DNA of 64,000 nt, from NCBI GenBank assembly GCA_001643675.2, contig LSRY02000016.1:248001-312000 (forward strand), read 5' to 3'. Source of the stretch: Monocercomonoides exilis PA203 (taxonomy: Eukaryota > Protista > Preaxostyla). Made by a program: the position numbers and the translations under genes. Positions 14,001-57,917 of this stretch are shown piece after piece. How positions within the stretch are numbered: position 1 is the first letter of the stretch; each line of letters begins with the position of its first letter. The notes below the pieces were generated by a model. The model was not told the origin of the DNA. It saw only the letters and a program-made list of their open reading frames with translations, and did no database searches.

Positions 14001-16676
14001 CCCATGTCTTCCACCACAAATCTGCTAGCCACACCGCTTTTGTCACACAGCACATCTGAGACAGGAGGGCTGCCAATGACTGAGAGTGTGCTTCCATTTT
14101 ATGAAGGTGAGCCACCTCCTCCGTCTGTTGTGCAGCGGCATCTGAACGAGCTGGTCAGGCACAATCCGTGTCCCTACTTCCACCCAGGTGTCAACGGGTG
14201 TGGCCTCTACTGTGTCTTCGATGGGCATCACGGGCCAGCCACTGCGAATTTCTTATCGGCGCATTTTATTGAGGCGTTTCTGCTGGTGGTGGAGAAGGAG
14301 TGCGAGAAGAGGAGGAGGATCAGAAGAGAAAGAGATGAGAAGATTAAAAAGCTGATACAATACTCAACTGCTCTCAAAGTGCAGGAAAGATACAATGCTC
14401 TTTCTACACCGAATCTCCACTCTTCAATAAATGCTCTCTCTTCTTCTGCTTCTTCTGCTTCTTCTGTCACTTTACCATCTTCCCCTTCTTCTTCATTATC
14501 TTACCCCTCTTCCTCATCTTTCTCTTCCACTTCCTCACCTTCCTCACCTTCCTCTCCTGAAACCCCCGGCAGTGCCAAGCACCCTTGTCTGTCTCGTCTG
14601 TTGGAAGAGACATTCGACTTGTTGGCAACAAAGTTGGATGTGCTGATGGTGCCTGATGGTGCCTGTGCTGTCTCTGTCATCATCACCCCCACACGCGTCT
14701 ACACTGCAAATGTGGGCGACAGCAGAGCTGTGTTAGTGTCACGCTTTTACGACAAGCGGATGTTTGGCGCGAGAAAAGAGGTGAAAAGGACAGCGGGAAT
14801 GGTTTTGACTGGCAGTCAGCTTGTGGGCAATGGAGGAGGAGGAGGACGAGGAGGACAGACACTGAATTCTTCAGCGTCTGTGTCTTCTTTGGCTTCTTCT
14901 CCTTCCACTTTCTCCCTTTCTTCTAATTCTCCCTCTCCTTCTCCTTCATCTGCCAACTCGAAGCCCTCTCCTCTTTCCATCTCCACAACCAGCCAAGCAA
15001 ATTCCTCTCCTTCCTCTTCTCTTTCTTCTTCTCTTTCTGCCTCTCCGTCAGAAGCTGTCGTTCCCACATGCTTCTGCCCAACACTCTTCCACAACAGCTC
15101 TGCCTCCACACTTCCTGATCTCATACACTCATACACATTCACCACATCATACAACTCTGAATCACCTCACCCATACTCTCTCCCTAAGAATAATACCACC
15201 TCAGATCTTTCTCTCTCTTCTTCTTCTTCTTCTTCTTCTATTGTGAGTTCATTGACATCATCATCTTCCTCTTCCTCTTCTTCTTCAACAGCCACTTCAG
15301 CTGTTGTTTCCTCTCATCACTCCAAAATCAAGTATTATGACCCTTCCCCAACTGCCTATCTTCAGCCCCACATTTACCCCGAGATGCCTTTAGGTGTGTT
15401 TGTCGCCAGCAAAAACATCACCTTCGACCACAAGCCAGACGTGAAGAGGGAGCTGAACTACATCAAAAGCGTTGGCGGCTTCCTGAACGGCGACAGAAGA
15501 GTGAATGGAATACTTGCTGTGGGGCGGGCGATGGGCGATAAAGACAACGGCCCGGCCATCTGCAAGGAGCCTGATGTGTATTGCATGGCGCTCAACAGGT
15601 GGCGAGGACTCCACATCGGGTGCCGGCCTGAGCGTGCGAAGAGGATTGTGAATGCAGTGAGGACGGAGGATGTGGAGATTCCAGATGACAACGACGAGCC
15701 AGATATATACGAGGAGCAGCTGCGCATTGAAGAGGAGATAAGGAAGCAGAGGGAAGAAAGGGGGAATGGCGCAGATTATGACCCAGATGAAGAAGTGCCA
15801 AAGGACGTGCTGATGAAGCTGCCTGACTTCTGCCCGCAGGCGAAGAAGAAGCCGTACCGCATCCACGACAAGAGCTTGGCGCAGACGCTGAACAGCTACT
15901 TGCTCCAGCTGGCGCCTTATCCTTCAGCCAACCACGATCCACCGCCAGGGCGGAACCCGAATGCGAAGCCAGTCTCGTTTGAGACGTACTTCGACTCAGA
16001 CTCGTTCACATACTCCACCAGCAACACATACGACACGCAGACAGAGAAGATCATCAACTGCTCGCTGGACGAAGGGCTGCAGCTGCTCTCCACTGCCTCA
16101 TACATCCCTGCTGCATACTCTGCTCTTCCCTCTCTGACTGCCACGTTCAACTCGATGAAGTTTCCTCCGCTGACAGCGTGGTCGGACTCGTCGCAATACA
16201 CACACGCCAACTGGGCCAGGGAGGATGTGGCAGTCGTCATCTGCTGCGATGGGGTGTATGATGTGCTCAACAACCAGCTGATTGCGGAGCTGGTGTGCCC
16301 GTGGGCGCAGTCTGGCAACCACGATGTGTTCAATGATCCTTTGTTTGACGACGATCAGAGCGAGTTGGAGCTGGAGGACGAAAGAGCGTCTGGAACGGAG
16401 GAGCAAGCGAAAAAGAGCGAGGAGTCGATGAAGGAATCGAAAAAACGGAAAGGAAAGAAAGAAATCGAAATGGAGGAAGACGGTGGAGAAGGAGGTGCAG
16501 GCAAGGAGAAGAAAAGGAGGAAGAAGAGAGGGATACGGGGTGTGGAAGGGGTTGGATGCAGATGTCATCGCATTAACAAGGGCCATCTTGCAGAGTTGGC
16601 TGCTCTTCGACTCAGAAATGCAGCAGATGCGTTGGAGACTCAAGATAACGTTAGTGTCATCGTGGTAATGCTTTGA
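8007..16676 (+). CDS. Leucine-rich-repeat + PP2C (PPM) protein phosphatase, PHLPP-like architecture, with large low-complexity insertions
   Basis: Four short 5' exons plus a ~7.5-kb last exon. Many LxxLxLxxNxL repeats. PP2C motifs in order: GTRPSMEDA, VFDGHHG, YTANVGDSRAVL, TFDHKPD, RVNGILAVGRAMGD, CCDGVYDVL, DNVSVIVV. Confidence 0.9.
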
Positions 16677-19999: not shown

Positions 20000-20283
20000 A
20001 TATGGTGCGAAATATTTCTCTTCATGCATTTTCTTTGAAAAATTGTGAACTTTTCATTTTCTTTTTGAGAACAAAAAACACAATCAGAATTGGTCCATTT
20101 TTTGACATTCGTGAAATGTTGGAAGACTTTATGTTTTGATTACAACAATACCTGTTTCAGGATATGAAAATCAAATTTATTTTGAAATCTGAGAAAGTGA
20201 AATAAAGTAATGAGTGAAGTTGATTTTTTTTTTTTTGTGTTTTGTGCAAAAAAAGCTTGAAAGTCCATATTTTCCCCCATATT
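20000..20283 (+). repeat. Old dispersed repeat copy (family also at 50819-51094 and 51749-52024)
   Basis: Colinear similarity, e.g. ATGAAAATCAAATTTATTTTGAAATCTGA...AAAAGCTTGAAAGTCCATATTTTCCCCCATAT here versus ATGAAAATCTAATTTATTTTGTAATCTGA...AAAAGCTTGAATGTCCATATTTTCCCCCATAT at 51.9-52.0 kb. Confidence 0.75.
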
Positions 20284-20440: not shown

Positions 20441-21399
20441 GGGTCAGTAATTTATCATATCCCCTTTTTTAAATCGGGACCCAAATTTTCTGGCTCACAG
20501 GAGCACTTTCAGTAAAAAATAAATAACAGGAAACCTTTTTTAAACTTTTATATACTATGCCAGAAAATATTTTTTATTTTTTTTATTTCTGTAAATAGAT
20601 CTGGAATTTTTTGTTTTATTTTTCTGATCAAAGACTTGCTCATATTTTCACGAGCTTTTTGTTTTGAGTGTTTTGAGTTATATCATTGTTTATAAACTTA
20701 ACTTCTTTGCAATTTTGGTTATTTTATATTATTAAACACTTCGTTTTTTTATTATTTTTTCCATTTCATGATTTTTTGACAAAATTAGAAACAATAGCAG
20801 AGTTTGAAATTGTTATGGTTTTTCGTATGAAAGAAAAATTGAAAAAATGATTGTTTTGTGCGTTACAAAGATTTTGAAATGAAAGAATGTGATTTGAAGC
20901 AAAAAATGCAAAAATAAATTAAAACGTTTTTTTTTTTTTGAAAAAAAATCTCGATCATAAAAAACTAAAGATTTTCATCCTTTTGAATACCTTTGTTAAT
21001 TGATAGTTTTCATATTTTCCCTTTTGAATTAACGAAAAAACTTATTTATTCAAATGTATTCTTCAATTTGTTGAAATTTAGTGAAATGGAAAAAATAATA
21101 AAAAAACGAAGTGTTTAATAATATAAAATAACCAAAATTGTAAAGAAGTTAAGTTTATAAACAATGATATAACTCAAAACACTCAAAACAAAAAGCTCGT
21201 GAAAATATGAGCAAGTCTTTGATCAGAAAAATAAAACAAAAAATTCCAGATCTATTTACAGAAATAAAAAAAATAAAAAATATTTTCTGGCATAGTATAT
21301 AAAAGTTTAAAAAAGGTTTCCTGTTATTTATTTTTTACTGAAAGTGCTCCTGTGAGCCAGAAAATTTGGGTCCCGATTAATTTTTTGGGTACCGAAAAA
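20441..21399. mobile_element. Non-coding foldback/MITE-like element with 296-bp near-perfect inverted arms (20473-20768 and 21082-21377)
   Basis: The arms are reverse complements with one mismatch seen. Degenerate inverted similarity extends outward to GGGTCAG (20441) / CTGACCC (21399). The AT-rich 313-bp spacer has no ORF. Confidence 0.8.
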
Positions 21400-21936: not shown

Positions 21937-24900
21937 TCATCTATTGCTGTATCCACTCCAGCTTCTGCTCTGTCGAGTCGCAGCCTCGCTGCCTCCATCA
22001 TCGCTCCTTGCTTCAAAATCGATGGCGTCTGATGCTGTGACAAACACAGCTCCTGCGGGAAACCGACTGAAGAATTCTCGCTTCAAAGTTATCAAGCCCC
22101 ACCTCTCCGATGGCGATGCAGACAAGCATGCTTTTATCATTTCTCCATATTCCTCACTCCCTGCTTTCTCGGGTTTCGGCCTTTCCCCATTCACAATTTT
22201 CTGCCCGGCTGCTTCTGCAGAATAGTCTCCAAACGGGATCTTCAGAGTCAGGCATTCCCACAACATCATCCCCACAGAAAACACAACTGACTCCTTTGTC
22301 GCTCTCATCTTTTTCTTCCCCATCAGCTCCGGCGCCTTCCATCGCTTGTATTCGTCTCTGCAGCCTTCATCATCCTCAAATGCCGATGAGGGTGGCGGTG
22401 AGTCTACGAATCGCTCACTCATCAATGAAACATCAGAGGATGATGTGACAATCGTGCATGATGAAGCAATGGATGAGGAGTCTGAATCCGACTCATCAGA
22501 GCAGTCAGAGTGAAGCGCTATGACAATCACCATCTGCTCAGAGAACAGCACAATGTGCGGACTCAGATTCGCCAATGACTGAAGTGGGTTTTCCATCTCA
22601 TTGAATGAGTGCAGCGCTCCATTCACCACCCAGAACAGGATCTGTGCAGCTGTCATCTCCCGCTCCTTCAATGAACCAATCGCCATCTCCTTCTTCTCAT
22701 TCTTCCCATGCACAAGCATGAATAGCGAGTCACGAAGATCCGCTATCAGCTTCTCATGCGGCGACGAGCATGCCATTCCATCCACCAGATTTGACATTGA
22801 CGAGGTGGTTGGGCACAGACTCTCTGATCGAACAAATGTTGAATCTGAATCAGTTGTCGAAGTGGTGGAAGTGGATGAAATGGATGGCGATGGTGTTCTC
22901 TTCTGAATCTCTTCTTCTTCAACCTTCTCCAGTGCCCACTCCGGAATCTTGTCTGAATCTCTCCCAAGTATGTATTCGGTGGAGCCGCTCTCACTTAACA
23001 AATGCTCGGATGATTCAGAATGTTGCATATTCGTATCATATGCTCTTTTCTTGATCCTCTCTTCATTCTTCTTCTCTGCCTCCCTCTCTGCTCTCTTCCA
23101 TTGTTCCTCAGGCGACATCTCCATCGTCATCATCTCAATCAGCTTCGGATCCTTCCTCACTGTATCTTCCACAATCTCCTCCAGTTCTTCTGTTCTTCTT
23201 TTTTGCTTTCTCCATCGAACAGTTGTAACCACTGCTATAATCAGAATTACAAAAAGAACAACAGCCATTATTATAACAACCAATGGCCATGATGATTTTT
23301 CTTTGTTTCCTCCTTCAACAAGTTTTTCGTTTCCATTCACCTGTGCTTCTGTTCTGTTCTTCACAACAAACCATTTCGTGCCCTGCCGCCTGGCTGCATC
23401 TCCAAACTCAATCCTCACCCTCACCTCTGCTGTCTCTGCCGCTCCTCGAGCTGCTGATGCTCCTATTCTGCTGCACACCTCCTCCTCTGACACATAGTCA
23501 GATTCCACAAACTCATGCCGCTCCACTGCTTCTGCGTTCCCATCCCATACGCTCACCCCAAATGAAAGATTGCACGGAATTAGCTGTCGCCCCACAAACC
23601 TCACCTCCAGCTCCTCCCCTGCTCCCCTCATATGCGCCTCCTCCACAACTGGCACAAACAGCGCCCATCCCCTTTCCCCTGCAATCCCTTCCAGTGTGCA
23701 CCCTTCACTCAGAATCCACAGCGAGCTGTTCTCCTTTGCACCGTCCCCTCCTTTCAGGCTCACAACATTAACCTTTCCCAAACCGCTGCACACCACATTC
23801 CGCCGGATGGATCTGTACTTCTCCACTGTCCCATTGTTGTTCTCAAACATCCCCATCTCAATCCTCACATCCCCACCATCCACCCCAGCCCCTCCACAGC
23901 TGCTGTTTGCAATCACTGTGTCTTTCATCCGGCTGCTGCAATTCTCCATCTCAACAACAGATCCATTCCAAAAGCATATCCCTTCCTCCGCTCCCTCCCA
24001 GTTTGTCTTCTCCAACAATCCACATCCATCAAACGTACAGCTGTCAAATGCAATGCTCGAAGCACACAAAACCTTCACTCCGCTCCCTCTTGCCGATTGC
24101 GATGTGCATCTTCGGAATGTGCAGTTCACAATTTCTCCCATCTCTTTCCCTTCCCCAGCTCTTAGCAATATGCACGATGCTCCTCCAGAGAGGCGTGTGA
24201 TGTTTTCAAAGCTGCACGATCCAATTCGTGGCAACAGCTTTGCTCCAGAGCAAATGATGCTCCCATCTTCCACGCTAATATCCGCCACGCTCACATTGTT
24301 CACGCTCGTCTCTTGCTCCGGCCCTGATGCCTCAATCACTCCATTCACTGTTTCCAAGAATCTGAGACCTGCAACCTGAACGCTTGACACAGCACAGCCA
24401 CCGCCTCCAATCCATATCAGCGAGAACCCAATTCTCGCCTTCCCATTCTCCTCCTCCCCATTTTGCATCGTGCTGAACGAACACAGCTGTATCCTGAGCA
24501 TCCCGCTCTGCACTTCAATCAGCCTTGCATGGCCCCATTCTGCTCCTTCTGCAAACACAAACCCCAATCCTGTCACCTCCACATTCCTCTGTGTCGCAAT
24601 AACCCCTTCCCTTCTCTGCTCTTCAATTCCCTTCACAATTATTTGCGCCATACCGCCTCCGCTCGATAGAACCCTCATCTCCACAAAATCGCACTCCCTC
24701 TCAATCACACTCTCTTCCTCCACAAACATCTGGCTCACATAATCCCATGTCACATGCTCCACCCCATAGTCGATCGATCGGCATGGAACTTCAGGCATTC
24801 CACACGATCTCTCATTTTTGCCTCCCTTCTCTCTGCTGCTCGACACCACAATCGTGTCCGACTGGAATATCGTAATGATTCCCATCAGATCAATCGCCTC

Positions 24901-27900
24901 CACTGTGTGCTGTGTCCTGTCCATCCCACACATCCCGTTTTGACGCACATACACACTTTCCCGCAGATCCAACCGGAACTGTGTCTCGTTGATCTGGTTC
25001 TCGATGCTGAAGCACTCCACAAATACATCCCGACCAGATGCTGCATCATTTCCACGAAACTCCATGCTCCGCAGCTCAAAGTCCAGCTCCCCTGTCACTT
25101 CAGAGTGCAGATATAGCCCTCCTCCCTTTCCTCTCTCTGCAGAACATCCACTCTGCTTTATTGTCGATTCGCTCATCCGCAGCCGCCCCCCTTCGTTCAA
25201 CGAGAAATACACAACCCCTCCTTTCTCGCTTTCCGACGATTTGCACGACTCAAACACGCACCCGCTCACATTCACACAAATCCCGCCATCACACTTACAC
25301 TCAACAATCCTCGGCCTATTCCCTTGCCCTGCCACAAACAAAAACGTTGAATTTTCCATTTCAACCACACTTCCCTCATCACCGTTTCCAACATCACCAT
25401 CCACAACTTGAACAACTGCCCCATCTCTAATTCTTCCTGTCTCCACACGCATTCCAAACAGAATGCATCTGCACCCACCATTCACCTCAAATAATCCTTT
25501 CCCTCCATTCATGCTCCTCGACTCCAGCTCATCCACCCTCAGCTCTCCATTCAACATCCTCACAAACACACTCCCTCCTCCTTCCCCTTCTCCTCCCTCT
25601 GTGCTCTCTCTTGTCTCAAATACACACTTATCCAGCCAAAGTGTTCCTCCATTGTTTTCAACTGCCCATCCTCGTCCGTTCTCAAACCCTGCTGCCATGC
25701 ACACACTCATCTCCTTCAGCACAAGCATCTTCGTGTTCACAATCACCCCTCTGCCTCTCTTCTCTCCATCTCCTCCAAACACCAGTGCAGATCGAGACAG
25801 CTTCTCCTCTCCATTCCTCCACCTCTCCACACTCAAGCTCGACAGATCCCACTCATCCTCCACTCCCACCTCTCTTCTGATCATAACCCTTTTCTCCTCA
25901 TTCTCTTTCTCAATCTGCTTCATCCCTTTCCACAGCGTGCCGCACGGATCCCTCTCGCTTCCACATCCCATCACATCAAACCCATCCTCGCTTATGTACA
26001 CCACCCCCGACCAGTACTTCACCACAAGTCGGAGCAGATTCGTCTCTCCAAGTTTCTCATCCTTCCCCACAAACAAGTTCTCATCCTCTTTCAATTCTCC
26101 ATATATTACTCCAAACGACTGCTCGTTCACCGTCTTGTTCAGATCCACTCCTTCTATGTATATTGCCTTCCCTTTTGCTCCTCCAACCGTTCCCTTGAAT
26201 TCCGTGTCTGCAAAACGCAATCCATCCTCTTTCAACCCTTCCCTGCTGTCCACATATATCACCACTCCACACCCTTCCTCCCACTCCCATCCGCACCCTT
26301 CAAAATAGCTATTCGATATCCCAAACATATCCTCTCCTTTCAGCTTCACCCTCATCACCCCTCCTCCTTCCCCATCTCCATCCCTTCCATCCCTTCCATC
26401 CCCTCCAACCCTCTTCACATCCTCAAACACACACCCGCTCATCTCCACACTCGAGCAAAATTCAAACACCACTGCCCCAATCTCCATTTCTTTCACCAAG
26501 CATGAAACTGCCATCACTTTTCCCCCACTGCTCTTCACCATGCTGTATTTCACTATCCCTGCTCCCTCCACCTCAAACTCACACAAAACCAGCCACAGCT
26601 CTGCATTCCCTCCCCCACTCCACACAACCTCGTTCTTCCCCCCTTCAAGTCTCACTGGCACAACCATCCTCACCCTCTCAACATTCAGCACCTTTTCGTT
26701 CTTCACCACCCAGCTCTCCCCATCTCCTTCGATCTTTTCCCTTATCTCAACAACACTTTTCTCCTCTGCCGAGCTCCCTTCCACCTTCCATCCGGACAGA
26801 TCTTCCACCTTCCTTATCCCGACCGTATCTATGATCTCCATCTCAATCATCCCATCCTCGTTCTCTCCATGCTCAACCCCTTTCTCAAACGACTCACACG
26901 GATACTCCTCTCGCCCACACCCCATGATGTCTGCCCCATTGCTTCCCACCACAATCCTTCTTGAGCGATATCCCACCAAAAAATACATCAGATCATGCGC
27001 CTTCTCCGAAAACCGCCCTTCATCCCTGCCCATCATCCTCACTCCTGCCTCGCCTCCTTCTTTCACCAGCTCCAGCTCAAACCGCTCCCCAACAACACTC
27101 TCCTTCAGATCTCTGCACTTAACAAACACATCATCCCCTTCATGAGCCGCATTCCCCTCAAACACCATCTTCGATATTCCAAACCTGTTCTCACAGTCTG
27201 CATGGATCCACATAAACACCCCACCTCCTCTCCCTCCTGTCTCGTCTGCCCTGCAATTCTTCACTGTGCAATTCTTCACCAGCACTTCGTCTTGCCCACT
27301 CATCTCCCAGCTTACTGCCCCGCCATCTCCCCTTCCTGAGCAGCACCCAACAAATTCACACTCCTCAGTCAATTCCACCTTCCTTCCATTTATCACCCTT
27401 ATCACTCCCCCACTCCCACCCCAGCAGTCCCGTGCCTTCATTCTCTTCACCACTATCTTCGTCCCTTTCTCTCCAACCACCAGCCCACCCCCATCTGTCC
27501 TTGCTCCATTCATATTCACATCCTCGCACAACAACCCCCCTCCCTTCATAGCACACATCCCCCTTCCATCTCCAAATTCCATCTGCTCCACACTCACCTT
27601 CTTCAGCTCCACTGACCCTCCTCTCCCACAAACAATCCACATGTTTGTCCTCCTCTTCTCTTCTCCTTTCCCTCCAAACACACACTCCACAACATGAACC
27701 TCTCCCACTCCCATCTCAAAAAGCTCCGAGTGCACAGACTTCTCTGCCACTTCAAACTCGATCCACTCAATCGTCAGCGTCGTCGACCAGCTCCCCACCA
27801 TCACACTCACTTTCCCTCTTTCCCCCACCACCACCTTCGACTTCGCCACCTCGTCTCCTCGGATCGTCAGCGACTCTCCTTCTCTCCTGATCTCCTCCCC

Positions 27901-30900
27901 AAGCTCGCTCTCCTCCATGATGTGCAGAATCGTCTTCTCCTTCCCCAGCTTCTCATTCCCTCCCTCCACCGTGTTGCACGGCAGCTCATCGCTCCCGCAG
28001 TTTTCCTGCCCAGTCACAGTCCTGTTCACAAAGATGATGTCTCCCTTCGGCGGAAACAGATATTTCAGCAGCGTCACATCGATCCCCGCATTCCCCGGAT
28101 CCACCACCCACATCGTGTTGTTGTACTCCTCCCCTTCCTTTGCCGACCCCTCCCACTTCCTCCGATCAATCACCACTCCTGGCTCTCGGCACACCAGATA
28201 CACATCCACCCCAATGTGCCCCTGATTCCCTTCAAACACATCCCGCCTCATCGAGTAGCTCACATCCACATCTTCAAACTCCATGAACAGCCCTCCTCCC
28301 TTCCCTCCGTTTCCATCCACTTTGCTCTCCCGCACTTCGTTCTCCTCAAACACCCAGCTCCCTCCTTTCCCCACACGAACATGCACACTTCCCCCTTCCC
28401 CCGTTCCGCTCTCGCACCGAATCACACTCACAACGCATCTCTCCACCACACACTCCATCCCTTCTCCCACACTCCCCACAATCACTGCCCCATTCCCTTC
28501 CATACGCGTCACCCCGCTCACATTGCTTTCTGCCATCCTCACACTGCTCGTCCTATCAAACTCCCACACACACTGATCCCCAAATCTCACTGCTCCGCTT
28601 GCCGATGTGTTCCCCACCTCCAACGACGACCCCTCTCCAACCCATATCAGCCCTTTCTTTCCTCCACTCGCCACTCTCTCAACCACAACCCCTTCAACAC
28701 TTCCTTTCGATCCCTCTCGCAATTCAACCATGCTCCCACTCTCAAACTCCTGCTCCCTCACCTCAACACTCTTCAGCTCCATCCTCCCCCCAACACACAC
28801 CACAAAGCTGAACCCCACTTTTCCACTCCCCATCCTCATTCCGCACCTCTCCATCACCAATCCCGACAGCCGGCTCACCACCACACTCCTCTGCCCTCTC
28901 ACAAACGTCTTCTCCACCACAAACACCACATCCGCAAACCCTGTATCCTTCCTCGTCTCTATCACCCCTTCGCTTTCTTCTCCCAAATCTCCTCTCACTT
29001 CGTATTCTCTCCTCTCTTCACACCCCTTCACATCCATCTCTTGCGTCGATATATCAATCACCGAGCAAAATGCAAATCCCCTCTTCAGCACTATTTCTGC
29101 TTTTCTCCCGAAAAACCTCGCCCTCCCGCAGTGCTCCATCGTCGCACACCCAAACCACTCAAACCCACACAACGAATAGTCCATTCCTCTTTCCCCTTCC
29201 ACATACCCTGGACTTCCCCACTCCTGAACAAACACCCCAAGTGGAACTCTCATCTCCTCTGCCTCATCATACCCCACAAATTCCAACCCATCCAGCTCCC
29301 CACCTCCCACATCCACCTTCAGTCTCTCCGAACTCACAACACCCCCCAGTCCTCTCCCTCTCACAAACATCTTCCGACCCACCCATGCCCAGCACTCCTC
29401 AAGCTCAACTTCTTCAATCTCAAACCCATCTGCCACACTGCACTCCATGAACATCCACCCTCCTTTCCCTTTCGTTTCCTTTTCTGCACAGCACCTCTCC
29501 CCCTTGCAGTTCCCCACAATTACATGCCCTTTCCCTTCAATGCGCACCTTCAGCGCTCCCCCTTCTTCATTCGCCCTTCCATCCACATCCGTCATGTTGC
29601 ACCACAAAAACTCCAGCTTCCCTCCAATCACGCTCGACACAATGCACGCCCCATTCCCCCCCAAGCACCCAACACTCCCAAACGAACAGTTCCAAAACTC
29701 CACCCCACTTCCCTCAACCCTTTCTTCTCCTCCTGATTCAAATTCCAGATCAAACATTGGCTCCTCCACCACAAACCCCTCAAACCGTGTTTCTTCCACC
29801 TTCAGCACTTCCCCGCTGAAACGGATAATCGCATACCCCACACTTCCTTGCACCCCGTCCTCCAATCCAAATCCACACTTCCTTATCCAAAGCTCACCGC
29901 CTTTCGACTGACAATTCATCAGCTCTGTGACCCCTTCCATCAAATCTGCTTGGCATCTTCACATCCAGCCACTCCAACTCCGTCACCCCTTCCGTCTTTA
30001 TCGCTGCGCTCCATTCCCCGCTCAGCATCCCTCTCACACTCATCTCCATTGCAATCTCCTCCATCCCTCCCAACCTCGCTCCGCTCACATCCACCTCTTC
30101 TCTCAGCTCTGACCCTCCTGTCAGCACCACCCACTTCTCCCCATCCTTCCCTGCATGCCCAAGCCCATACTCCACTGTCATGCATGGATATGCGCTCATC
30201 CCGCAATACACCTCATTCCTCCCTCCCTCTTTCCGAACTTCCACCCTCCCTGACACATATCCCGTGATAAACACATACAAATCCGTATCCTCCCTCATCG
30301 CCTTCCGGTCTCGCCCAACCAGCGAGTTCCCCCTCTTCCTAATCGACAATCCAAACCCAAACCTCAAAGGCGTCACATACTCGCTCAGCTCATCACATAT
30401 CACATACACATCTCGTCCAGCTTTTCCTCCGTTCCCTGCAAACTCCACATCCCCAAACACAACTCCATCCCCTTCCACCCCCAGCTCCACAAACACTCCT
30501 CCCCCTCTTCCTCCAACCCCTTCCTGTTCCCCTGCTTCACACATCTCCACCACGCTCTTCTCCCCACTTTTCCCACTTTCCCCACCCTCCCCTATCTTCA
30601 CCCTTCCCCCTTTCTCCACAACCACCTTCATCATCCCCCCATCCCCTTTCCCGCTTCTGCACCTGCTCGCTTGAACATTCACCACCTCCACACTCCCTCC
30701 GCTCCCCACAACCCCATTCACACCAACCCCATCTCCTTTCCCTGCTCCTATCGAACTCATGTTGCACCCACTCACCTTCACATACCCTGCCCTTTCGCTT
30801 CTCACCACACTTCCTTCTCCAAGCACACACTCATTCGCCTTCGAATTGTTCATCTTCAGCCTGCTTCCACTCTTCACCACAATCATCGACCCTGATTTCT

Positions 30901-46574: not shown

Positions 46575-48085
46575 ATGAGCTTTACAAATTCAACGCGTAG
46601 TCCTGTTTCCTCTTCTGAACGTCCTCAGAATCCTCCATCTAAAGTTGTTCATTTTCGTAATGTTAGCTCTGATATCACGCAGGTTTGAAGATCTTTCGTA
46701 ATTCTTTTTACTCAACAATAAATATTTTGAAATGTTTTTAGTCCGATCTTACTGAGCTCTGCTCAAAGTATGGTGCTGTTACTGCTGTTCTTATGCTTAA
46801 AGCAAAGAATCAAGCACTCGTCCAATTTCAAGATTTAGCTGGAGCTGTTAACTTTATCACTGCGTGCTCAAAATTCGCTCCTTCAATCAGGTATCTTTTT
46901 TTTTTATTTATATAAACATCTCACAAACCCATCGTTGATAAAAATAGAACTGTGCCAGTTTATCCACAATATTCAAACCACAGTGAAATACAAACACCTG
47001 CTCCAACTCCAGGATCGGAGAATTCACGAATCCTTTTATGTACCATTCAAAATCCATACTATTCAATTACTGTTGATGTTCTCAACACCATCTTCTCCCC
47101 ATATGAAACTCAGCATACAACCGTTGAAAAAGTTGTTATCTTTCAAAAAACTGCTGGTCTTCAAGCTCTCGTTCAGTTTAGCAACCCAGAATCCGCAATG
47201 AAAGCAAAAACTTTATTAGATGGAAAGAATATTTACAGCAATTGCTGCACCCTCCAAATTCAATTTAGTAACTTATCTGATCTGACAATTAAAGAGAATT
47301 CTGAAAAATCTCGTGATTTTACCAATCCATCATTGCCAGAAAGAGGAAGCACGGGTGATGGGTTGCTCGGAATTGAGGGCACAGACGGAAGAACAAGAGG
47401 AGTTATGGGATTAATGGGTCCAGCTGCGTTTGGTCGCAGTGGTATGGGTGGAATGGGTGGAATGGGAGGTATGGGAAGTGGAGTTCCTTCAACAAGCGAG
47501 AGATGCGTTCTTCTTGTGTCTGGCTTTCCATCAGACCGTGTGGGATGCGAACAATTGTTTAACTTATTTAGCAATTATGGAACAATTATTCGTATTAAGA
47601 TTTTGTTTTCAAAGGCAAACATGGCACTTGTGCAATTTGCGGAAGGTGGACAGGCAACACAGGCCCTGAACTTTTTGCGTAATGTGCGTATGTTCGGATC
47701 AACTTTGGAAATCAATTATTCCAAATTCCCGTCCATTACTGAACCATCTCGTCCCTCTTCAGATGGAAAGACCGTTACATATGAAGGATCTCACCAAAAC
47801 CGCTACCAACGTTATGGACAGGCAAATCTGAGGAACATGACAGCACCAACGGACGTGTTACATATAAGTGGACTTGCAACAGGAACAACGGAAGAAGATT
47901 TGGTTCAACATCTTCAAAGAGTGTCACCTGTTGTTGGAGCAAAAATATTTGAGCATTCTGATAAACTGATGGCATTGGTGCAATTTGACTCGGAAGAAAG
48001 TTCAATTAATGCAATGTGCATGCTTCACAACACAATATTGAATGGAAAACATATCCGTCTTTCGTTCACACGCAGCCGCATTTAA
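46575..48085 (+). CDS. Polypyrimidine-tract-binding protein / hnRNP L-like protein, 4 RRMs
   Basis: PSKVVHFRNV, KNQALVQF, VYPQYSNHSEI, YSITVDVLNTIFSPY, GLQALVQF, LDGKNIYSNCCTLQIQFS, LFNLFSNYGTIIRIKIL, PTDVLHISGL, IRLSFTRSRI; two short 5' introns. Confidence 0.92.
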
Positions 48086-48971: not shown

Positions 48972-50310
48972 TTACAAATATATAAAATATTTTGATGCAT
49001 TTTGACCTATCATGGGCATAATACACATGAACGCATATTTCTTCATTCCATGATAGCTTGTGATGGCATCTTCGTATCCTTCTTCTTCCAGCCAATCATA
49101 CAATTTCCTTTTTATCATCTCTCTTTTCACTTCGAGTCTGATATCATACCTCATTCTTTTCAAACTACTGAAAAGTTCGCAAACAACTTCTAAACAATTT
49201 TCTATAGCATCACGTTTTAATGTCCATTGAAATAGTTCTTCCATAATGTAATCAAAAGCACCTCCATTCAGAAGGCCATCAATTCTTAAATAAAAAGTAT
49301 GTGCAATTTGAGTTAAAGGAACAAAACTAATGTTAAATAGTCTCGGTTCATTTTCTCCTGCGACTTTGCAAATCCCGATAAGGCTGTGAACAAGTTCTTG
49401 GTCCTCTTTCCAAAAATCACAAAGTGATAAATAGTCTCTCGCTTCCTCAATCCATTTAAAGATTAAACGAACTTTGAACGCTTCTTCTCTACTTCTTTCT
49501 TCTTCTTTCTTCTTCCAATCCACTTCTTTTGTCAGCACTTCCAATTCTCTAGCTATTTCGCTTGCAATATTAAGCTCATTTGCTACTGCTTCTTTAAATT
49601 TTCGATCTAGATTTAATCTTTCTAATAAGAAATTCCAAGCAGAATGGTAGGCTACATGCGTCAGATTTCTATGCTCCCCATGATATTGTATAATTTCTAT
49701 CATCTCATTCAGGAATAACCCTTTTTCTACTGTCTATCATTAATAAATCCAAAAATCAATGAACATAAAATAATAACAAAATCATTTATACAGCGTATTT
49801 TCCTATGTTACTCAAAGCAAATAATGCTATTTCTACTTCCATTTGAGTCATCTCGTTTTTTTCTTTCTTCAGCGCAACTTTCAAAACGTAACGCACGCAA
49901 ATCGGTACCAATTCCGATGAACTGAAATAATCATCCAGTATTAGATAGCATATGCAAAGATCAACAAGAAGCTTTTCATCCTTTTCAAATTTCTTCTTAT
50001 CTTCTTCAATTATCATCTTCTCAAATTTTTGCTTCAAGTAAGAATTGCATATTCTCGTCTTGAACATGGATTTCTTCGTTTCGTAACATTCAATATGCTT
50101 CAGCAACATAATCACAGTTTCCGTTGTCATTTTCTTCTCTTCAAACATTTTGTTGATTTTGCCTAAATTTTTATTCCAAAGCATTTGAATCAATTCATCT
50201 TCATTCATTTCTTCCATTATTTCATTTATTTCTTTAATTTTCTGTTTCTTTTCACTCTCATCGCAATCTTCTGGTTCAGAAAACAATTCTGAAAAGATAT
50301 GAATAAACAT
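48972..50310 (-). CDS. Lineage-specific alpha-helical (ARM-like) hypothetical protein, probable multicopy family, 2+ exons
   Basis: ORFs 49786-50358 and 48972-49703 join through a short GT-AG intron. Motifs FSELFSE, FEKMIIEEDKK, LLVDLCICY, EVEIALFALSNI, HRNLTHVAYHSAW, LEEEGYED resemble an expanded Monocercomonoides family (from memory). 5' end uncertain. Confidence 0.65.
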
Positions 50311-50818
50311 ATATTTTCTGAAAAGAAAAAAATTAAAGCAAACTTGAAAACTTTTCAATATATGTTATTATATGAGTTTTATCATTTATTGCACTCATTT
50401 TATTCATTATATATTCTACACTCATGAAAACACAACGATTCATCAAGCAAACAAGATTATTGACAAATACAAACATCTTTATATATCAAGCAAGAGTATT
50501 GAGAGAAAAATAACAAATTAATATGCTTTGTTTGATAAATATATGCAGTCCAAGAAAAAATAAAGATAAAACCGCTCTATAGGTTTTGCCTAAAAGATCA
50601 AGCAAATCTTTTTTTCTCGTAGTGATCAATACCATTTTATGAAATTTATTGTGATAAAAAATCCACAATTAAGGATGATGTTTTCGTTTTTGGAATTTTA
50701 TTCCATACAATGTATTCAAATATTTTTCTCAATTTTAGCCCGGGTAATTGACTGTCCTGGATTGAAAAAAAGGATATTCGATTAATTTGATGGGAAACAA
50801 TCATGGAAGAAAATTAGG

Positions 50819-52024
50819 ATATGGAGGAAAATACGGACTTTAGAGCTTTTTATGCACAAAGCATGAAAAAATTGTTTCTCTTATCACATTATTAAACTTT
50901 ATCAGATTTCAAAATAAATTTGATTGTCATAACTGTCAACAAACATTATTGATTTAACAACAAAATTGTTTGTAACCTCACATGTATGTTAAAAAAATAA
51001 ACCCATTTTTTTCAAATTTTTAGATCACAAAAAGCTATCTTTGATGCTTAATTTAACAATGAAAATGCCTGAAGTCAAATATTTTGTCCCATATGGGTGA
51101 TTATTTTTGAAATCATATCTTTTTTCGGGGTGTTGATTTTTCAAAGATTGTTTTTTATTGGGAAGAGATTTTGAATTCAAATATAAAAACTATTATAACT
51201 GTTTCAAAAATAAATGTTTTTGCTGAAATAAAGATGAAGATGTCTCAAACATACCATTTGACTTTTTTTGTGTTCATTTATTAATATTCAAGAAATATTT
51301 TTTAACCGAATTTTTTGTATGAAATAATATGATTTCAAAAATAATCACCCATATATTTTAAGTTTTTATTTCAAATAAAGTCTTTTCAACAGACCTTTAT
51401 TTTTTTCACTTTTTGAAAAGTCAACCATTAAAATAATCAGCTTGTTTTTTGTTTTGTGATTGACAAGAAACTTTAAAATTCTAATATTGTTTTTCAATTT
51501 TCATTCTATTATTTTAATATTTTTATTTATATACTCGATTTTTGCAAAATTTGAACTCATCCATATATAACAAAATTCTTGCATTCATGAAAAGAAACAT
51601 GGTTTTTTCCAAACTTTTTGTGAAAGATTTTTGTCACAATTCTCACATTTTCATGGTTAAAAAATGCTCATATTTAATACAGTTGAGGGAAAAAATTGAA
51701 AGTATTTTCAGGAATAAAATTAATTAATAAAAATATTTCTTTCCAGAGATATGTGACAAAATATTTGACTTCGTGCATTTTCATTGAAAAATCATGCACT
51801 TTTCATAGATTTTTTGAAATCAAAATATATGAATAAAATGTGTATATTTATTGAAATACATGTGAAGTCACATAATAATTTGTAATAACATCAATGATGT
51901 TTGTTTTCAGTAATGAAAATCTAATTTATTTTGTAATCTGATCGAGTTCAAAAATGTTATAAGGGAAACAATTTTTTCATGATTGGAGCATAAAAAGCTT
52001 GAATGTCCATATTTTCCCCCATAT
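50819..52024. mobile_element. Old, diverged foldback structure: inverted copies of the ~275-bp repeat at 50819-51094 and 51749-52024
   Basis: GAAGTCAAATATTTTGTCCCATAT (51071-51094) versus ATATGTGACAAAATATTTGACTTC (51749-51772), with patchy inverted similarity outward; same family as 20000-20283. Confidence 0.6.
51095..51350. mobile_element. 256-bp MITE with perfect 24-bp TIR GGGTGATTATTTTTGAAATCATAT, flanked by ATAT on both sides
   Basis: 51091-51118 is the exact reverse complement of 51327-51354. Confidence 0.75.
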
Positions 52025-52389
52025 GGCATTTCAGCTATAGAACCATCTCGGTTAAGATCAATCAATATTATCTATTAATGTATATCTGATTGTAGTTATC
52101 ATCTTGTATAATAAGTTGAATATGCAACGATAATAAGATAGAGATCGAGGGTTATTGCTGACACTCTTAGGGGTTTATCATGATTCTATTTTCAGTGATG
52201 TTCTATAAAGAAGGAGTTATTGATTGGTGTAATCGAGATATATCTATAGCTGATATACCATACCTCCAAGGAGAAGAATTAGCTAAAAGATTAGCTGAAA
52301 GTGTCGAAGATGGTGATGTTACCGTTGATGTTACCGTTGATGGAAATCGCAAATAAAAATAATTGATTTTGTTTTTTGTTTTATAGTAA

Positions 52390-52971
52390 ATGGGTCGGAA
52401 GAAGATTTACGCGACTGTGGAAGAAGCGAAAGCGGCTCAACAAAAACAAATTAAACAGTTTCAGGAAAAACGTAAGGAAGAAACTAAGTACAGTCTAAAC
52501 CGGATATAATCACGTCGAATATAATCACATTCGCCTATAGTCACATTTATCGATGCACCGACATTTTTTGCTTATTTTTCATTCATTTTTCATCGCATAT
52601 AATCACAGTGATGAAAACATAAAATCTCATTTTTTATTATTATGTGTGGATTTTTCATTGAAAAATCGATTTTTTGATCAGAAATCTCAATTTTTCGCTT
52701 TTTCAAAAATGTTCACAAATTTGTCAAAATCATGTGTAATAATGAAAAAAATTAATTTCGCAAGTGAAAAAAGTGTATTTGTATAGAATTTCCAAAAATA
52801 AAGAAATCGACCCAAAATTAATTATTTCAAAAATTATTTTTTTATTTTTTTCTGTGTTTAACTGCATCGTATATTATCACAATCATATACAGTCACAAAA
52901 ACTTGTGCAAAAACCGATGTGATTATATCCGGTTTAGACAGTATGTGGACAAACTGGCAAAGTTAGCATAG
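52390..52971 (+). pseudogene. Small basic ORF interrupted by a MITE (reconstructed MGRKKIYATVEEAKAAQQKQIKQFQEKRKEETKYVDKLAKLA, 42 aa)
   Basis: Removing 52491-52941 plus one TA restores a continuous frame from ATG 52390 to TAG 52969-52971. Confidence 0.6.
52491..52941 (+). mobile_element. 451-bp Tc1/mariner(pogo)-type MITE, TIR CAGTCTAAACCGGATATAATCAC, TA target duplication
   Basis: TA|CAGTCTAAACCGGATATAATCAC ... GTGATTATATCCGGTTTAGACAG|TA (22/23 match); internal subterminal ATAATCAC/ATAGTCAC repeats; no credible ORF. Confidence 0.88.
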
Positions 52972-53066
52972 AAGTCTAAATACATTAAATATGAAAATTT
53001 ATTAATATCGGTAATTTTTTAATATAAACCTCAACTTCATCTTCCCGGTGAATTAATGTTTCAATA

Positions 53067-55382
53067 ATGAATCTGTTTCAAAAAAAATATGTTTTTTTTA
53101 TCTGTGAAAAATTGGCAACTATGAGCAAAAGCATAACCAAAATAATCAGAAACAACAACAAAACGGTTCAACTCCTTATTTGCATGGATGAAAAAACATT
53201 GAACGAAAGAATTGATTCAACGTTGTTGATTCATTCAATTTTCAAAAGTATGATGGAGGCAGTGGCTCTGTTGTTACCATTAGAGCAGAATTGGTAAACA
53301 AAGTGTCAAATTTTACTGTTTTCGACATTGACATTAACAAATCGTTTGACGATGAGTCCAAACAATCTGCAAGATCAAGAATATTATATAAACAAGACGA
53401 AGACGATGTTGTTGTTTAAACAGCTTCAGGGGGATTACACATTTATGCTAATACCGATGACTTTTTCACCAACTCCAACAGAATGATGATTGAATGTTAC
53501 ACTTGAGACGAATTTGATGTTGATATCATGACATCTTTGGATGAGAACAAACTATCATTAATAGTATAACCAAACAGGAAAGTACGTAAGGATCATCGAT
53601 CAAAGACAAATGTTTATCAGCTTGTTAGAGGTTCGTTTGGCTCGCAATTACACGAAATGTTAAAGAAATGTTGAACGATCTCTCATTGAAACTGTACATC
53701 AAAACATCTGATCAAATCGATAATATTGAAAAATTGGACAACGACAATGACAAAATCAGTGATGAATTAGCTTATGTTTTTGTCAACGTGTTGGAGTGTT
53801 TTGTCATACATAACGATGCGTGAAATATGCCAATCAACAGAGAAGTCACGTTTTTCACACTGTTTCAAGCTATTAATTCATTACCGAATGAACATATCGA
53901 ATTAGCTTACGACAGAGGACAAAACAGTGACAATTTGACAACTTACGCACGAGATAACCATTATACTGCAAAACAACGATATAGATGTTTGAGATCATCT
54001 CCATTTGTATTCGTTAAGATGTTCAAAATATGGAATTATGACTGTTAGACAAACGAGATATTGCCGTTACTGAGAAACGACAGCAATATTGTTAAACCAT
54101 TAGATATGTCTGATTCGTTTTCCATGACAGACATTCGACGAAAAGTGGAGACAAAACAATACAAAACAGCTGATAATATAATTGGTGATTTGTCGAGAGT
54201 TATTCGATTTACTGAAACAGGAGCGATGAATAAACAAAAAGATTTCAATATAATCGATAAACGTTGGGGGATAACGTTTGTCACAAACACTGATATGACA
54301 ATTAATTTTAAGATGATTAATCTGTTGAAAACTGAACATAAAACAGCAACAGCATATGACATTCTACTGTCTTGTTTGTTGAAACTAACATTGCAATGTG
54401 TAATGTTTAATGCAATAGATGCAGCTGATGTATTCTCAATATTTCAAGGTTTCAAGTACAATTTACGAGAACATGTTGATATGGAAACAATCTCAATGTT
54501 TCTGGACTTTGTTTGTGAGGAAATTGCTGACTCCAACGACGATGGATATGAATATGTTATTAACTGGATTGCCAACATTGTTCAACACCTGGAATAAAAA
54601 ATGAAACAGCATTAATATTGAAAGGCATTCAAGGTATTGGGGAAAACAGATTCACAGATGTTATATCATAACTATTCGCTGGTTATTTTAGCAGAAATGT
54701 CACAGAAATAGGAGAATTGACTGGAAACTTTAACTCTGTTGTTGAAAGCAAAATGTAGATTGTTTTGAATGAACTGAAAAATTGTGGAGACGACAGATTG
54801 GTAAATGACAATGCATTGAAGTCTGCAATAACACAAAACATTATTTGAATAAACGAGAAGAATCAACCTCGTAGAACCACCGAGAATGTGGCTAATTTTA
54901 TATTTGTGACTAACCACTCATTCCCAGTAAAGATTGCAACAGACGATTGCAGATATGTTGTTCTTGCATGTAGTGGAAAATACAAGAACAATTTCGAATA
55001 TTTCGAACAACTATGTTCTTCATTTACGACAGAGTTTAATGACAATTTGCTTCCATATTTGATGAACAAAGATCTTTCATGATTTAACTTCAGGTCAATA
55101 CCAATGACAGAAGCAAAAATTGATATTATAGAAGCGAGTTAAAGTCCCTTGGAAATGTGGATTTGAAATCATTACGACGAGCTATGTGTCGGAATGAATT
55201 GAACAGAAGCTCTCCTCTGCAAACATGTTGAAATAAAAGACATGAACTTCCAACTGCAACTGAAAGATAAATGAGAGCATAAACAGAAATCAATAAATGG
55301 AATACGTTCAAGGCATTAAAAATTGAAAGATGAATGCAAACTATTGTTCAAACAAACGGTATTCGATGAAGAGGATAATTAA
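53067..55382 (+). pseudogene. Degenerate primase-polymerase (AEP/Prim-Pol) fused to D5-like superfamily-3 helicase
   Basis: Across stops and frameshifts: FTVFDIDIN (53324-53332, motif I), VVV*TASGGLHIY (53420-53446, motif II), FDVDI; then YEYVINWIANIVQ, ETALILKGIQGIGENRFTD (Walker A with K>E, 54624-54647), GNFNSVVESKM*IVLNE (Walker B), INEKNQP, NFIFVTNH (motif C), DDCRYVV, IPMTEAK. Confidence 0.85.
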
Positions 55383-55715
55383 TAATAACAGAAATGTTAC
55401 TGTCTTGTTTTTGCCAAGTAAATGCATTCTTCCCAATTTTCTCACTTTGCCCTTTTGCCCACATATTTTGGAGAATGAAATTGACTTGGTGCACTCGGTG
55501 CACCCAGTTCAGGCAAAATGCACGTGAATTAAATTCAAAATTTCCACGCCACAGCATCACTCACATAAACTGTCCAGCTTAACCTGTCCACCCTGTACAG
55601 GCAAATAACCATTAACTTTTTCCATCATCTCATCTAACAGCTTATCACATTCGATAAGCTTTCTCCTCAATAACTTAATCAACATCAATTTCTCAGTAAC
55701 ATGTTCGTTGTTACA

Positions 55716-56166
55716 CTGTCTAAACCGGATATAATCACATCGGTTTTTGCACAAGTTTTTGTGACTGTATATGATTGTGATAATATACGATGCAGTTAAA
55801 CACAGAAAAAAATAAAAAAATAATTTTTGAAATAATTAATTTTGGGTCGATTTCTTTATTTTTGGAAATTCTATACAAATACACTTTTTTCACTTGCGAA
55901 ATTAATTTTTTTCATTATTACACATGATTTTGACAAATTTGTGAACATTTTTGAAAAAGCGAAAAATTGAGATTTCTGATCAAAAAATCGATTTTTCAAT
56001 GAAAAATCCACACATAATAATAAAAAATGAGATTTTATGTTTTCATCACTGTGATTATATGCGATGAAAAATGAATGAAAAATAAGCAAAAAATGTCGGT
56101 GCATCGATAAATGTGACTATAGGCGAATGTGATTATATTCGACGTGATTATATCCGGTTTAGACTG
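55716..56166 (-). mobile_element. Second, inverted copy of the 451-bp Tc1/mariner-type MITE
   Basis: Mirror of 52491-52941, including the same TIR mismatch. TA is present on the outer side (56167-56168) but not at the inner junction. Confidence 0.88.
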
Positions 56167-57917
56167 TACTTAGTTTCTTCCTTACGTTTTTCCTGAAACT
56201 GTTTAATTTGTTTTTGTTGAGCCGCTTTCGCTTCTTCCACAGTCGCGTAAATCTTCTTCCGACCCATTTACTATAAAACAAAAAACAAAATCAATTATTT
56301 TTATTTGCGATTTCCATCAACGGTAACATCAACGGTAACATCACCATCTTCGACACTTTCAGCTAATCTTTTAGCTAATTCTTCTCCTTGGAGGTATGGT
56401 ATATCAGCTATAGATATATCTCGATTACACCAATCAATAACTCCTTCTTTATAGAACATCACTGAAAATAGAATCATGATAAACCCCTAAGAGTGTCAGC
56501 AATAACCCTCGATCTCTATCTTATTATCGTTGCATATTCAACTTATTATACAAGATGATAACTACAATCAGATATACATTAATAGATAATATTGATTGAT
56601 CTTAACCGAGATGGTTCTATAGCTGAAATGCAATATCTCTCGTTTCATACACACTGTTAAGTTTTTATTTCTTTTATGGATTGTCGATAGATGTTAGTCA
56701 AGATCATTTTGTCAAAAAGATCCATCTATCAAATGGATTTTTCTATTTTTTGTATTTTATTCTTTGAGAAAATATTTTTAATAATGATTTAATAATGAAT
56801 TACATTTTTTAATTGAAGTATTGAAAGAATTCAAAAGATTTAGAATTTTTAATATGAACAACATAAATTTATCATTTGTCAAAAACCATATTTTGCATTG
56901 AATACATATGCATTCAGATGTTTTTGTTATTTTCCTTATAATCAAATAAAAGTTTTTTTAAAGAATTCCATATTAATCACACATTTCGAGTTTAGCAAAC
57001 AGTCATAAATTTTTTGGAAATAAAAGTGGAACAGCAAAAAAGGAATGACTGGGGAAATTTAAATTATTATTGAATTCAATGAATAAGGAAAGAAGTTTGA
57101 TAGGATTATTTCTGCTGATGATATACCAAAAATAATTCATTTTCGAAATGAAAATTTTGTTGATAAGTGGAATTATAAAATATTGTTTTACTGTCAAAAT
57201 ACTCTTGGTTTTAATCAATTGAGCACATTTTGTTCATGAATATTTAAAAAATGATGTATTTCCTTTATTAAAATTTCATTCATTTTGATTGAAAATTTTA
57301 TAATTCGAAGTTTATTTGAAAAGAAAATGAATTCATTTTCATTTTTAAAAAATTCAAGTTTTTCAAAATTTCATCTAAGAAACAAAAAAATTATCAACAA
57401 AAAATTTTTATCTTTTGTTATTCGATAAATTGTAATTGATTATTTGCAGTTTTTTATTGGGAATAATATAGAATGAATTTTCTTTAATATTTTTATCTTT
57501 TGAGTGATGTTTTTCGAAAATGAAAAAAAAATATTTAAAAAATTGATTTATTGATTGATTCATTTTTTTAAAAACAGTTTTTTTTAAGTAATAATATTTG
57601 ATTGGTTAAAAAATAACTTGAACTTTTCTGAAATCCATTTTCGTGAAAAATTAAAAATTTCAGTTTTAAATGAATTTCGAAATTGAAATAATCATTTTCG
57701 AAATTGAATTATTTTTTTTCGAATTAGAATTATTTTTGGTGTAATAACATAATTGGAAATTATCATTGTGCGTGTCTGTGGAAAAATGTTCCCTTCAAAC
57801 GAAAAATAGTGTGCGGACAAGAAATTTAGGAGAAATGCTAAATTCAAACGTTATTCAGGAATTATGAAAAGAAAAAGAAAAAATTTTTTTGGTTTTGAAA
57901 TAGAAAGCAGAATTAAC

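Follow-up and report, generated by a model that had tools for sequence, protein, structure and literature searches.

A Decayed Prim-Pol-Helicase Gene within a Palindromic Element of Monocercomonoides exilis, Probably a Deleted Maverick-Type Virus Remnant

Architecture of the Palindromic Element

The 64,000-nucleotide stretch of Monocercomonoides exilis PA203 DNA analyzed here (contig LSRY02000016.1, positions 248,001 to 312,000; "the window," whose numbering is used throughout) contains a palindromic element at 52025–56632, in an A+T-rich stretch between eukaryotic genes readable in the standard code. The element holds a dead gene copy, predicted to have encoded a fused primase-polymerase (Prim-Pol) and superfamily 3 (SF3) helicase, between long inverted arms, and is probably what internal deletion has left of a Maverick/Polinton-type endogenous virus akin to the class-3 Mavericks of Trichomonas. 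The arms form a perfect inverted repeat of 917 bp with 0 mismatches, the longest of 150 inverted pairs in the window; an inverted-repeat comparison makes the right arm (55715–56631, − strand) the exact reverse complement of the left (52026–52942, + strand). The palindrome noted in the original prediction is thus real, at 917 rather than 916 bp per arm, and the arms account for 39.8% of 4,606 bp, in line with its estimate of about 40%. Between them lie 2,772 bp. The whole element reads 5′-GG…C(A)-3′ between two copies of ATAT, with a last base that mismatches the left end. No Rfam family matches in window positions 50500–57500.

From the outside in, each arm comprises a 235-bp terminal unit, a 231-bp segment with the start of a small open reading frame (ORF), and a 451-bp miniature inverted-repeat transposable element (MITE). 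The terminal unit (52025–52259, + strand; mirror 56398–56632) has its own 43-bp inverted repeat (79%), with ATAT outside and ATAC inside, and its DNA fold scores z −2.99, with 2 of 200 shuffles equally stable. Our information on other copies comes from short assembled contigs of four DNA runs of one sample. In these, the outer ∼465 bp of the arm is a high-copy family end common to many copies. Contigs of other copies run on from the 235-bp unit across its inner edge into the segment with the small ORF, which makes the arm a single, longer unit with an ORF of ∼85 codons.

The MITE (52491–52941) has terminal inverted repeats of ∼28 bp with TA on either side; its mirror copy (55716–56166) has TA outside and CA inside. 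It passes into unrelated flanks at one end in 8, 26, 21, and 13 contigs of the four runs. The TA duplication, the short terminal repeats, and the many loci are features of a Tc1/mariner-type MITE, and we take the unit to belong to that superfamily from the signature of its ends, no transposase having been seen. Its insertion cuts the small ORF. The 5′ half (33 codons, beginning MGRKKIY, from the ORF list) lies at 52390–52488 (+) and in mirror at 56169–56267 (−), and on the left its continuation meets a stop after nine codons. The 3′ half (51 codons, open) lies at 55557–55712 (−), is high-copy in the runs, and is likely to represent the original inner portion of the terminal repeat of the family. 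None of the three small ORF pieces matches a family in Pfam, PHROG, or NCBIfam, and searches for protein relatives returned none. Other copies of the element have no MITE here, position 55710 or 55682 being joined directly to 56167. Where the contigs listed continue from 56167 without the MITE, they do so in the right-hand form, with the sequence that in this copy lies on the inner side of the right arm and completes the small ORF. The left inner junction is a clean MITE end followed by TA. The possibility that other copies lack the arms, raised earlier, therefore applies to the 917-bp form, which looks specific to this copy, and not to the outer ∼465 bp.

Integrity of the Arms

Arms without a single difference in 917 bp, next to a gene so heavily decayed, could mean that assembly or polishing produced their identity, or the second arm as a whole, and false consensus is a problem of which the available text of a study of endogenous viruses warns (PMC10120064). 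Moreover, none of the records extends over an entire arm, and at three of the four junctions the arm side is represented by only 30 letters. These three are the left inner junction, in the exact record 52913–53369, and both right arm junctions, in the exact records 55613–55744 and 56602–56717, which extend 30 letters past each. Nevertheless, all four junctions lie in short-read contigs matching exactly, the left outer end being crossed by a run-X1 record at 51745–52158. An exact 133-bp terminal arm record from run X3 has a depth of 175, compared with 53–115 for single-copy exact records, that is, about twice single-copy depth; it covers 133 of the 917 bp and stops at 56631, where the flanks diverge. 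An exact record from the MITE interior in run X1 (depth 6.65, compared with 3.2–9.9) says nothing either way on arm doubling. An artefact is thus highly improbable. Both arms have in common variants absent from nearly all other copies, which argues that the changes predate the copying of one arm from the other. The 100% identity is probably real and recent.

We give no more weight to a single local event in which one end of a larger provirus fragment was duplicated in inverted orientation, the parent never having had two arms. This would account for an inner boundary at a MITE end, and the contigs listed show no MITE-free junction of the left type. It is hard to reconcile with the ATAT at both outer ends, with the termination of both arms at the same family terminus, and with a right arm that runs on into family-type sequence.

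A Dead Prim-Pol-Helicase Gene

Homology, motifs, and stop count define a pseudogene at 53121–55370 (+). Similarity to intact proteins of ∼750–770 amino acids covers 53219–55370 in three frames, and the start is likely to be at 53121. Identity to the Trichomonas vaginalis protein P0019 is 50%, 45%, and 64% over the three frames. The helicase part of the window piece matches PF19263 (E 1.2e-15) and the helicase of phage NrS-1 (PDB: 6k9e; E 8e-16). The part corresponding to the archaeo-eukaryotic primase (AEP) has no Pfam match in the window piece, so that the proposed profile check for Prim-Pol/AEP plus a D5/NrS-1-type helicase succeeds for the helicase half only. The DxD and GGxH motifs are present in that piece.

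Searched with the helicase piece, 1,068 candidates yielded 80 relatives. The nine with a named host are all from metamonads (T. vaginalis, M. exilis, H. meleagridis, and S. strix). In an alignment of the 64 near full-length members of the 80 (alignment A1), DxD is found in 64/64, GG in 64/64, and the histidine in 63/64, and Walker A and the DRRY motif are also almost invariant. A model of one relative, P0004 (pLDDT 87), superimposes in its C-terminal part on the NrS-1 helicase (Z 27.1; 364 residues aligned; root-mean-square deviation [rmsd] 4.3), and also resembles the helicases of SaPI, African swine fever virus (ASFV), and poxvirus D5. Residues 25–281 superimpose on primase-polymerases of archaeal plasmids, such as the Sulfolobus enzyme 3m1m (Z 9.6; 150 aligned; rmsd 3.5), and the AEP part on 1ro2 (Z 9.5); a Z of ∼9.5 is a moderate score. 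A single-sequence model of the N-terminal domain had a pLDDT of 41 and was not used. Profile match, motifs, and modeled fold all identify the family as a Prim-Pol fused to an NrS-1/D5-type SF3 helicase, as had been predicted. In a tree built with a quick method from 83 rows (P0074, P0080, and P0082 dropped as short; L084, described below, not included), the window copy joins the T. vaginalis and M. exilis proteins in a group of 30 rows that has weak support and leaves its position unresolved; the M. exilis proteins are not its sister group.

The gene copy itself is dead: in-frame stops interrupt its 716 codons 14 times, the frame changes near 53218, 53643, and 54587, and the Walker A lysine and one DRRY arginine are replaced. 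It departs from 22 of the 140 columns conserved in 95% of relatives; for the 64 intact members the median is 1 and the highest count 21. With its stops, its frame changes, and the loss of the Walker A lysine, it contains no intact, potentially active frame, and this copy cannot replicate itself. Since stops in endogenous viruses can arise from assembly errors or false consensus (PMC10120064, available text), we checked them against the short-read contigs. Thirteen of the 14 stops, and all three frame changes, lie inside contigs that match the window exactly, ruling out assembly error for those 13. An alternative code with TAA and TAG read as glutamine leaves the gene closed, through TGA stops and the frame changes; the standard code suffices to keep the long host ORFs open. 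In the same runs, contigs of other copies do not have the three frame changes.

Because the replicase is dead, and because the arms owe their 917-bp length to a nested MITE that other copies do not have at that junction, the suggestion that the element is an integrated minimal linear replicon is unsupported for this copy. The pseudogene, the MITE that makes up half of each arm, and the ATAT direct repeat at the ends are additions to what had been noted before.

Gene Neighborhoods of the Relatives

A single long locus with a full-length relative came to light, the contig L084 (1–9384), from a prokaryote collection in which it is the 1 relative among 71 candidates. The contig is likely to be a mis-binned protist virus inside a bacterial genome bin. 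Its Prim-Pol-helicase is 56% identical to P0004 and 38–58% identical to the window pieces. The neighbors of this gene include a DUF4108 protein (E 5.7e-6) and an A32-like ATPase (E 0.0023, below the curated cut-off). An 837-amino-acid ORF has as its Atlas neighbors the protein-primed DNA polymerase B (pPolB) family PF03175 (0.92; 178/256 features) and contains recognizable motifs. No gene of L084 other than the primase-helicase matches the element.

In a metagenome scan, 353 relatives were found and 80 kept, with gene content determined for the top 6 loci. An A32-like ATPase lies beside the helicase in two of these six closest loci (L005 and L007). The helicases of L005–L007, whose neighbors are A32-like ATPase or HNH-type genes, are of ∼500 amino acids and lack the AEP part; the L004 sequence is truncated at that end. 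L006 also contains a repetitive ORF of >1,280 amino acids. A viral collection gave no match to P0004 and none to the ATPase or primase of L084; searched with alignment A1, it gave three distant loci at 28%–33%. The context in L084, taken together with helicases beside A32-like ATPases, indicates that the gene is native to Maverick/PLV-type viruses of gut protists, PLV denoting Polinton-like virus.

This gene content resembles that of the T. vaginalis class-3 Mavericks (TvMav3), for which the available text of PMC12289875 reports a primase in 91.8%, DUF4108 in 58.8%, and "Poxvirus D5 protein" in 8.6% of 1,705 copies, as well as pPolB and an A32 ATPase. Common to both are the primase/D5 gene, 45%–64% identical to P0019 (a 198-member cluster); the DUF4108, pPolB-like, and A32-like neighbors in L084; and the long terminal inverted repeats of the element (compare PMC12289875, available text). 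AEP-SF3 fusions are described as common replication modules of PLVs in the available text of PMC10120064 and of bioRxiv 10.64898/2026.06.19.733378, and the Metamonada hosts of the endogenous Maverick-Polintons and PLVs treated there agree with the named hosts of the relatives found here. Those viruses are defined in the same texts by capsid genes, whereas the element has none. The same domain order and folds recur in the phage NrS-1 primase-helicase, ASFV PrimPol, poxvirus D5, and pRN1 ORF904, but at ∼9%–20% identity and in intact enzymes of phage, large viruses, or plasmids.

A Probable Internally Deleted Maverick Remnant

The element carries a gene native to TvMav3-like Mavericks, a statement resting on the one locus L084, and it has long terminal inverted repeats. 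It is not a complete Maverick, because it is without polymerase, integrase, ATPase, capsid, and the usual duplication. We found no pPolB or packaging ATPase, for which the interior has no room and which have no counterpart in matches to L084 genes, and no integrase or capsid, the non-primase stop-to-stop frames being ≤92 codons (52026–56631, standard code). As originally predicted, no transposase is recognizable either; the interior consists of the gene and ∼0.6 kb of small-ORF and non-coding DNA. The element also differs from TvMav3 in size (4.6 kb, as opposed to 15–26 kb), in its dead gene, in its ATAT flanks, and in its repeats, which are of ∼465 bp or more, as opposed to 100–130 bp in TvMav3 and 500–900 bp in classes 1 and 2 (PMC12289875, available text). 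The earlier proposal of a deletion derivative of an undescribed endogenous virus family is supported as regards the deletion, to which the neighbors in L084 point, and amended as regards the virus, which is of a known kind, the metamonad Mavericks, and TvMav3-like. Our literature search found no description of this element; Repbase and most subscription papers lay outside its coverage.

Several observations weigh against this reading. No 5–6-bp duplication flanks the element (lengths 2–10 were compared, also beyond the adjoining MITE), only AT/ATAT. Mavericks make a 5–6-bp target-site duplication. Neither the arm sequence nor the small ORFs find a counterpart in L084 or the other loci compared, and the search for protein relatives was negative, so that a viral origin of both is no more than presumed. 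L084, a contig that is cut off, shows no terminal repeat, integrase, or capsid, and its pPolB-like ORF has no sequence match in Pfam, PHROG, NCBIfam, or the PDB. Intact copies from this genome were not seen, so that the parent's size and gene content are deduced from one distant locus, L084. P0019 is presumed to be the TvMav3 primase. Finally, two intact members, both without stops, violate 20–21 conserved columns, near the 22 of the window copy.

On the favored reading, the primase gene of the parent provirus would have lain between long terminal inverted repeats, each made up of the outer 465 bp and a further ∼160 bp that survive on the right side only. A TA-targeting MITE would then have entered one repeat and been copied to the other. 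A deletion from the inner end of the left MITE to a new TA upstream of the primase gene would have removed the inner left repeat and what lay beyond; the palindrome would stop exactly at the MITE end because the deletion began there. Long after decay of the gene had set in, one arm would have been recopied from the other, giving the 100% identity that includes the private variants. Lastly, a host transposase that cuts at ATAT may have moved the remnant as a composite transposon through its 235-bp terminal units.

The ATAT-Flanked Ends

The last step of this history concerns the ends. The left ATAT (52021–52024) is shared with the right end of an adjoining MITE that is not part of the element (50823–52020; 276-bp arms, 76%; ATAT|GG…CC|ATAT), and the right ATAT (56633–56636) yields the only direct repeat >2 bp among flank lengths of 2–10. 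A second GG…CC MITE with ATAT flanks (51095–51350) is nested in the first. Both MITEs look high-copy in the runs, with heterogeneous flanks at 51091 and 51354. The pattern ATAT|GG or C(A or C)|ATAT occurs at all six ends of the element and the two MITEs, at five distinct sites and chosen post hoc, against an ATAT background of 0.014 per base. We consider the chances evenly balanced that the last insertion was made in trans, through the 235-bp units, by the same ATAT-cutting transposase that served the GG…CC MITEs. This transposase was not found. Some piggyBac subgroups use ATAT. Our literature search turned up no ATAT-targeting GG…CC superfamily; its coverage was as given above. ISL2EU (PHIS) elements have GG termini, as here save for the mismatched right terminal base, and AT beside each end, but their A|AT|T target does not fit ATAT flanks (PMC4482050, available text), and no transposase was found. 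In the viral collection, a 17-base end motif has 11 matches, none extending past 24 bases. Elsewhere in the window, 20004–20282 is a partial copy of an arm of the 50823–52020 MITE, 70% identical and again with ATAT beside its ends.

These ends bear on a fairly unlikely alternative, in which the arms are not viral but belong to a host family of cut-and-paste transposons that has long terminal repeats, targets ATAT, and took up a Maverick primase gene as cargo, as Pack-type elements do. The ATAT|GG and C(A)|ATAT ends do resemble those of the MITEs at 50823–52020 and 51095–51350, the terminal 235-bp unit is itself MITE-like, and summed contig depth, which is not a copy number, is ∼10-fold higher on the arms than on the gene. 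However, the contigs that cross the inner edge of the 235-bp unit indicate one longer arm unit with its ORF of ∼85 codons. A joint at 55464–55578, present in three of the four runs although no single record spans both gene and arm, further suggests that other copies too link the 3′ side of the gene to the arm.

Less likely again is a compact, capsid-less family whose live members copy themselves with the Prim-Pol/SF3 protein and borrow a transposase or helper virus, this copy being a dead one. The arms are family-wide, the gene nearly fills the interior, and the copies without the three frame changes would fit such a family. Against it, the same full-length gene sits in the multi-gene, Maverick-like locus L084, and no contig shows an intact short element. 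The left inner junction resembles a MITE-end deletion, so that the small size needs no special biology. Transpovirons and linear plasmids are likewise small, with terminal inverted repeats and a helicase gene, which in transpovirons is of superfamily 1; the element differs in being integrated with a duplicated target, in its dead gene, and in its SF3 helicase.

A hybrid family, combining a Maverick-derived Prim-Pol/SF3 replicase with ATAT-cut ends and without capsid, polymerase B, or integrase, is also unlikely, ranking a little below gene capture and a little above the compact family. At the same low probability, its members would copy themselves off the chromosome, homogenize their arms by strand displacement, and re-enter through a borrowed host transposase. 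If live, short, ATAT-cut members do exist, this virus-to-transposon hybrid would be of real interest. The deleted remnant that we favor is the more modest case, and the most likely: it extends the TvMav3-type primase Mavericks to another gut-protist genome, and in it nested MITEs, a deletion at a MITE end, and arm-to-arm copying would have turned a provirus into a palindrome that mimics a minimal replicon. Because metamonad Mavericks are still unplaced among PLVs (bioRxiv 10.64898/2026.06.19.733378, available text), a mapped family would help.

Other Features of the Window

A further foldback element lies at 20472–21378, with 312-bp arms that are 98% complementary and a 283-bp spacer. A 2,543-codon ORF at 9045–16673 (+) contains leucine-rich repeats and a PP2C domain, and one of 2,673 codons at 21940–29958 (−) combines a β-helix, a transmembrane-like segment, and a C-terminal tyrosine-kinase-like domain. 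At 46916–48082 (+) lies a multi-RRM protein that, judging from its Pfam matches, appears to be PTB/hnRNP-L-like. The segment at 49789–50364 (−), which has no clear Pfam match, is a piece of a multi-copy host gene family, with depth raised in all four runs.

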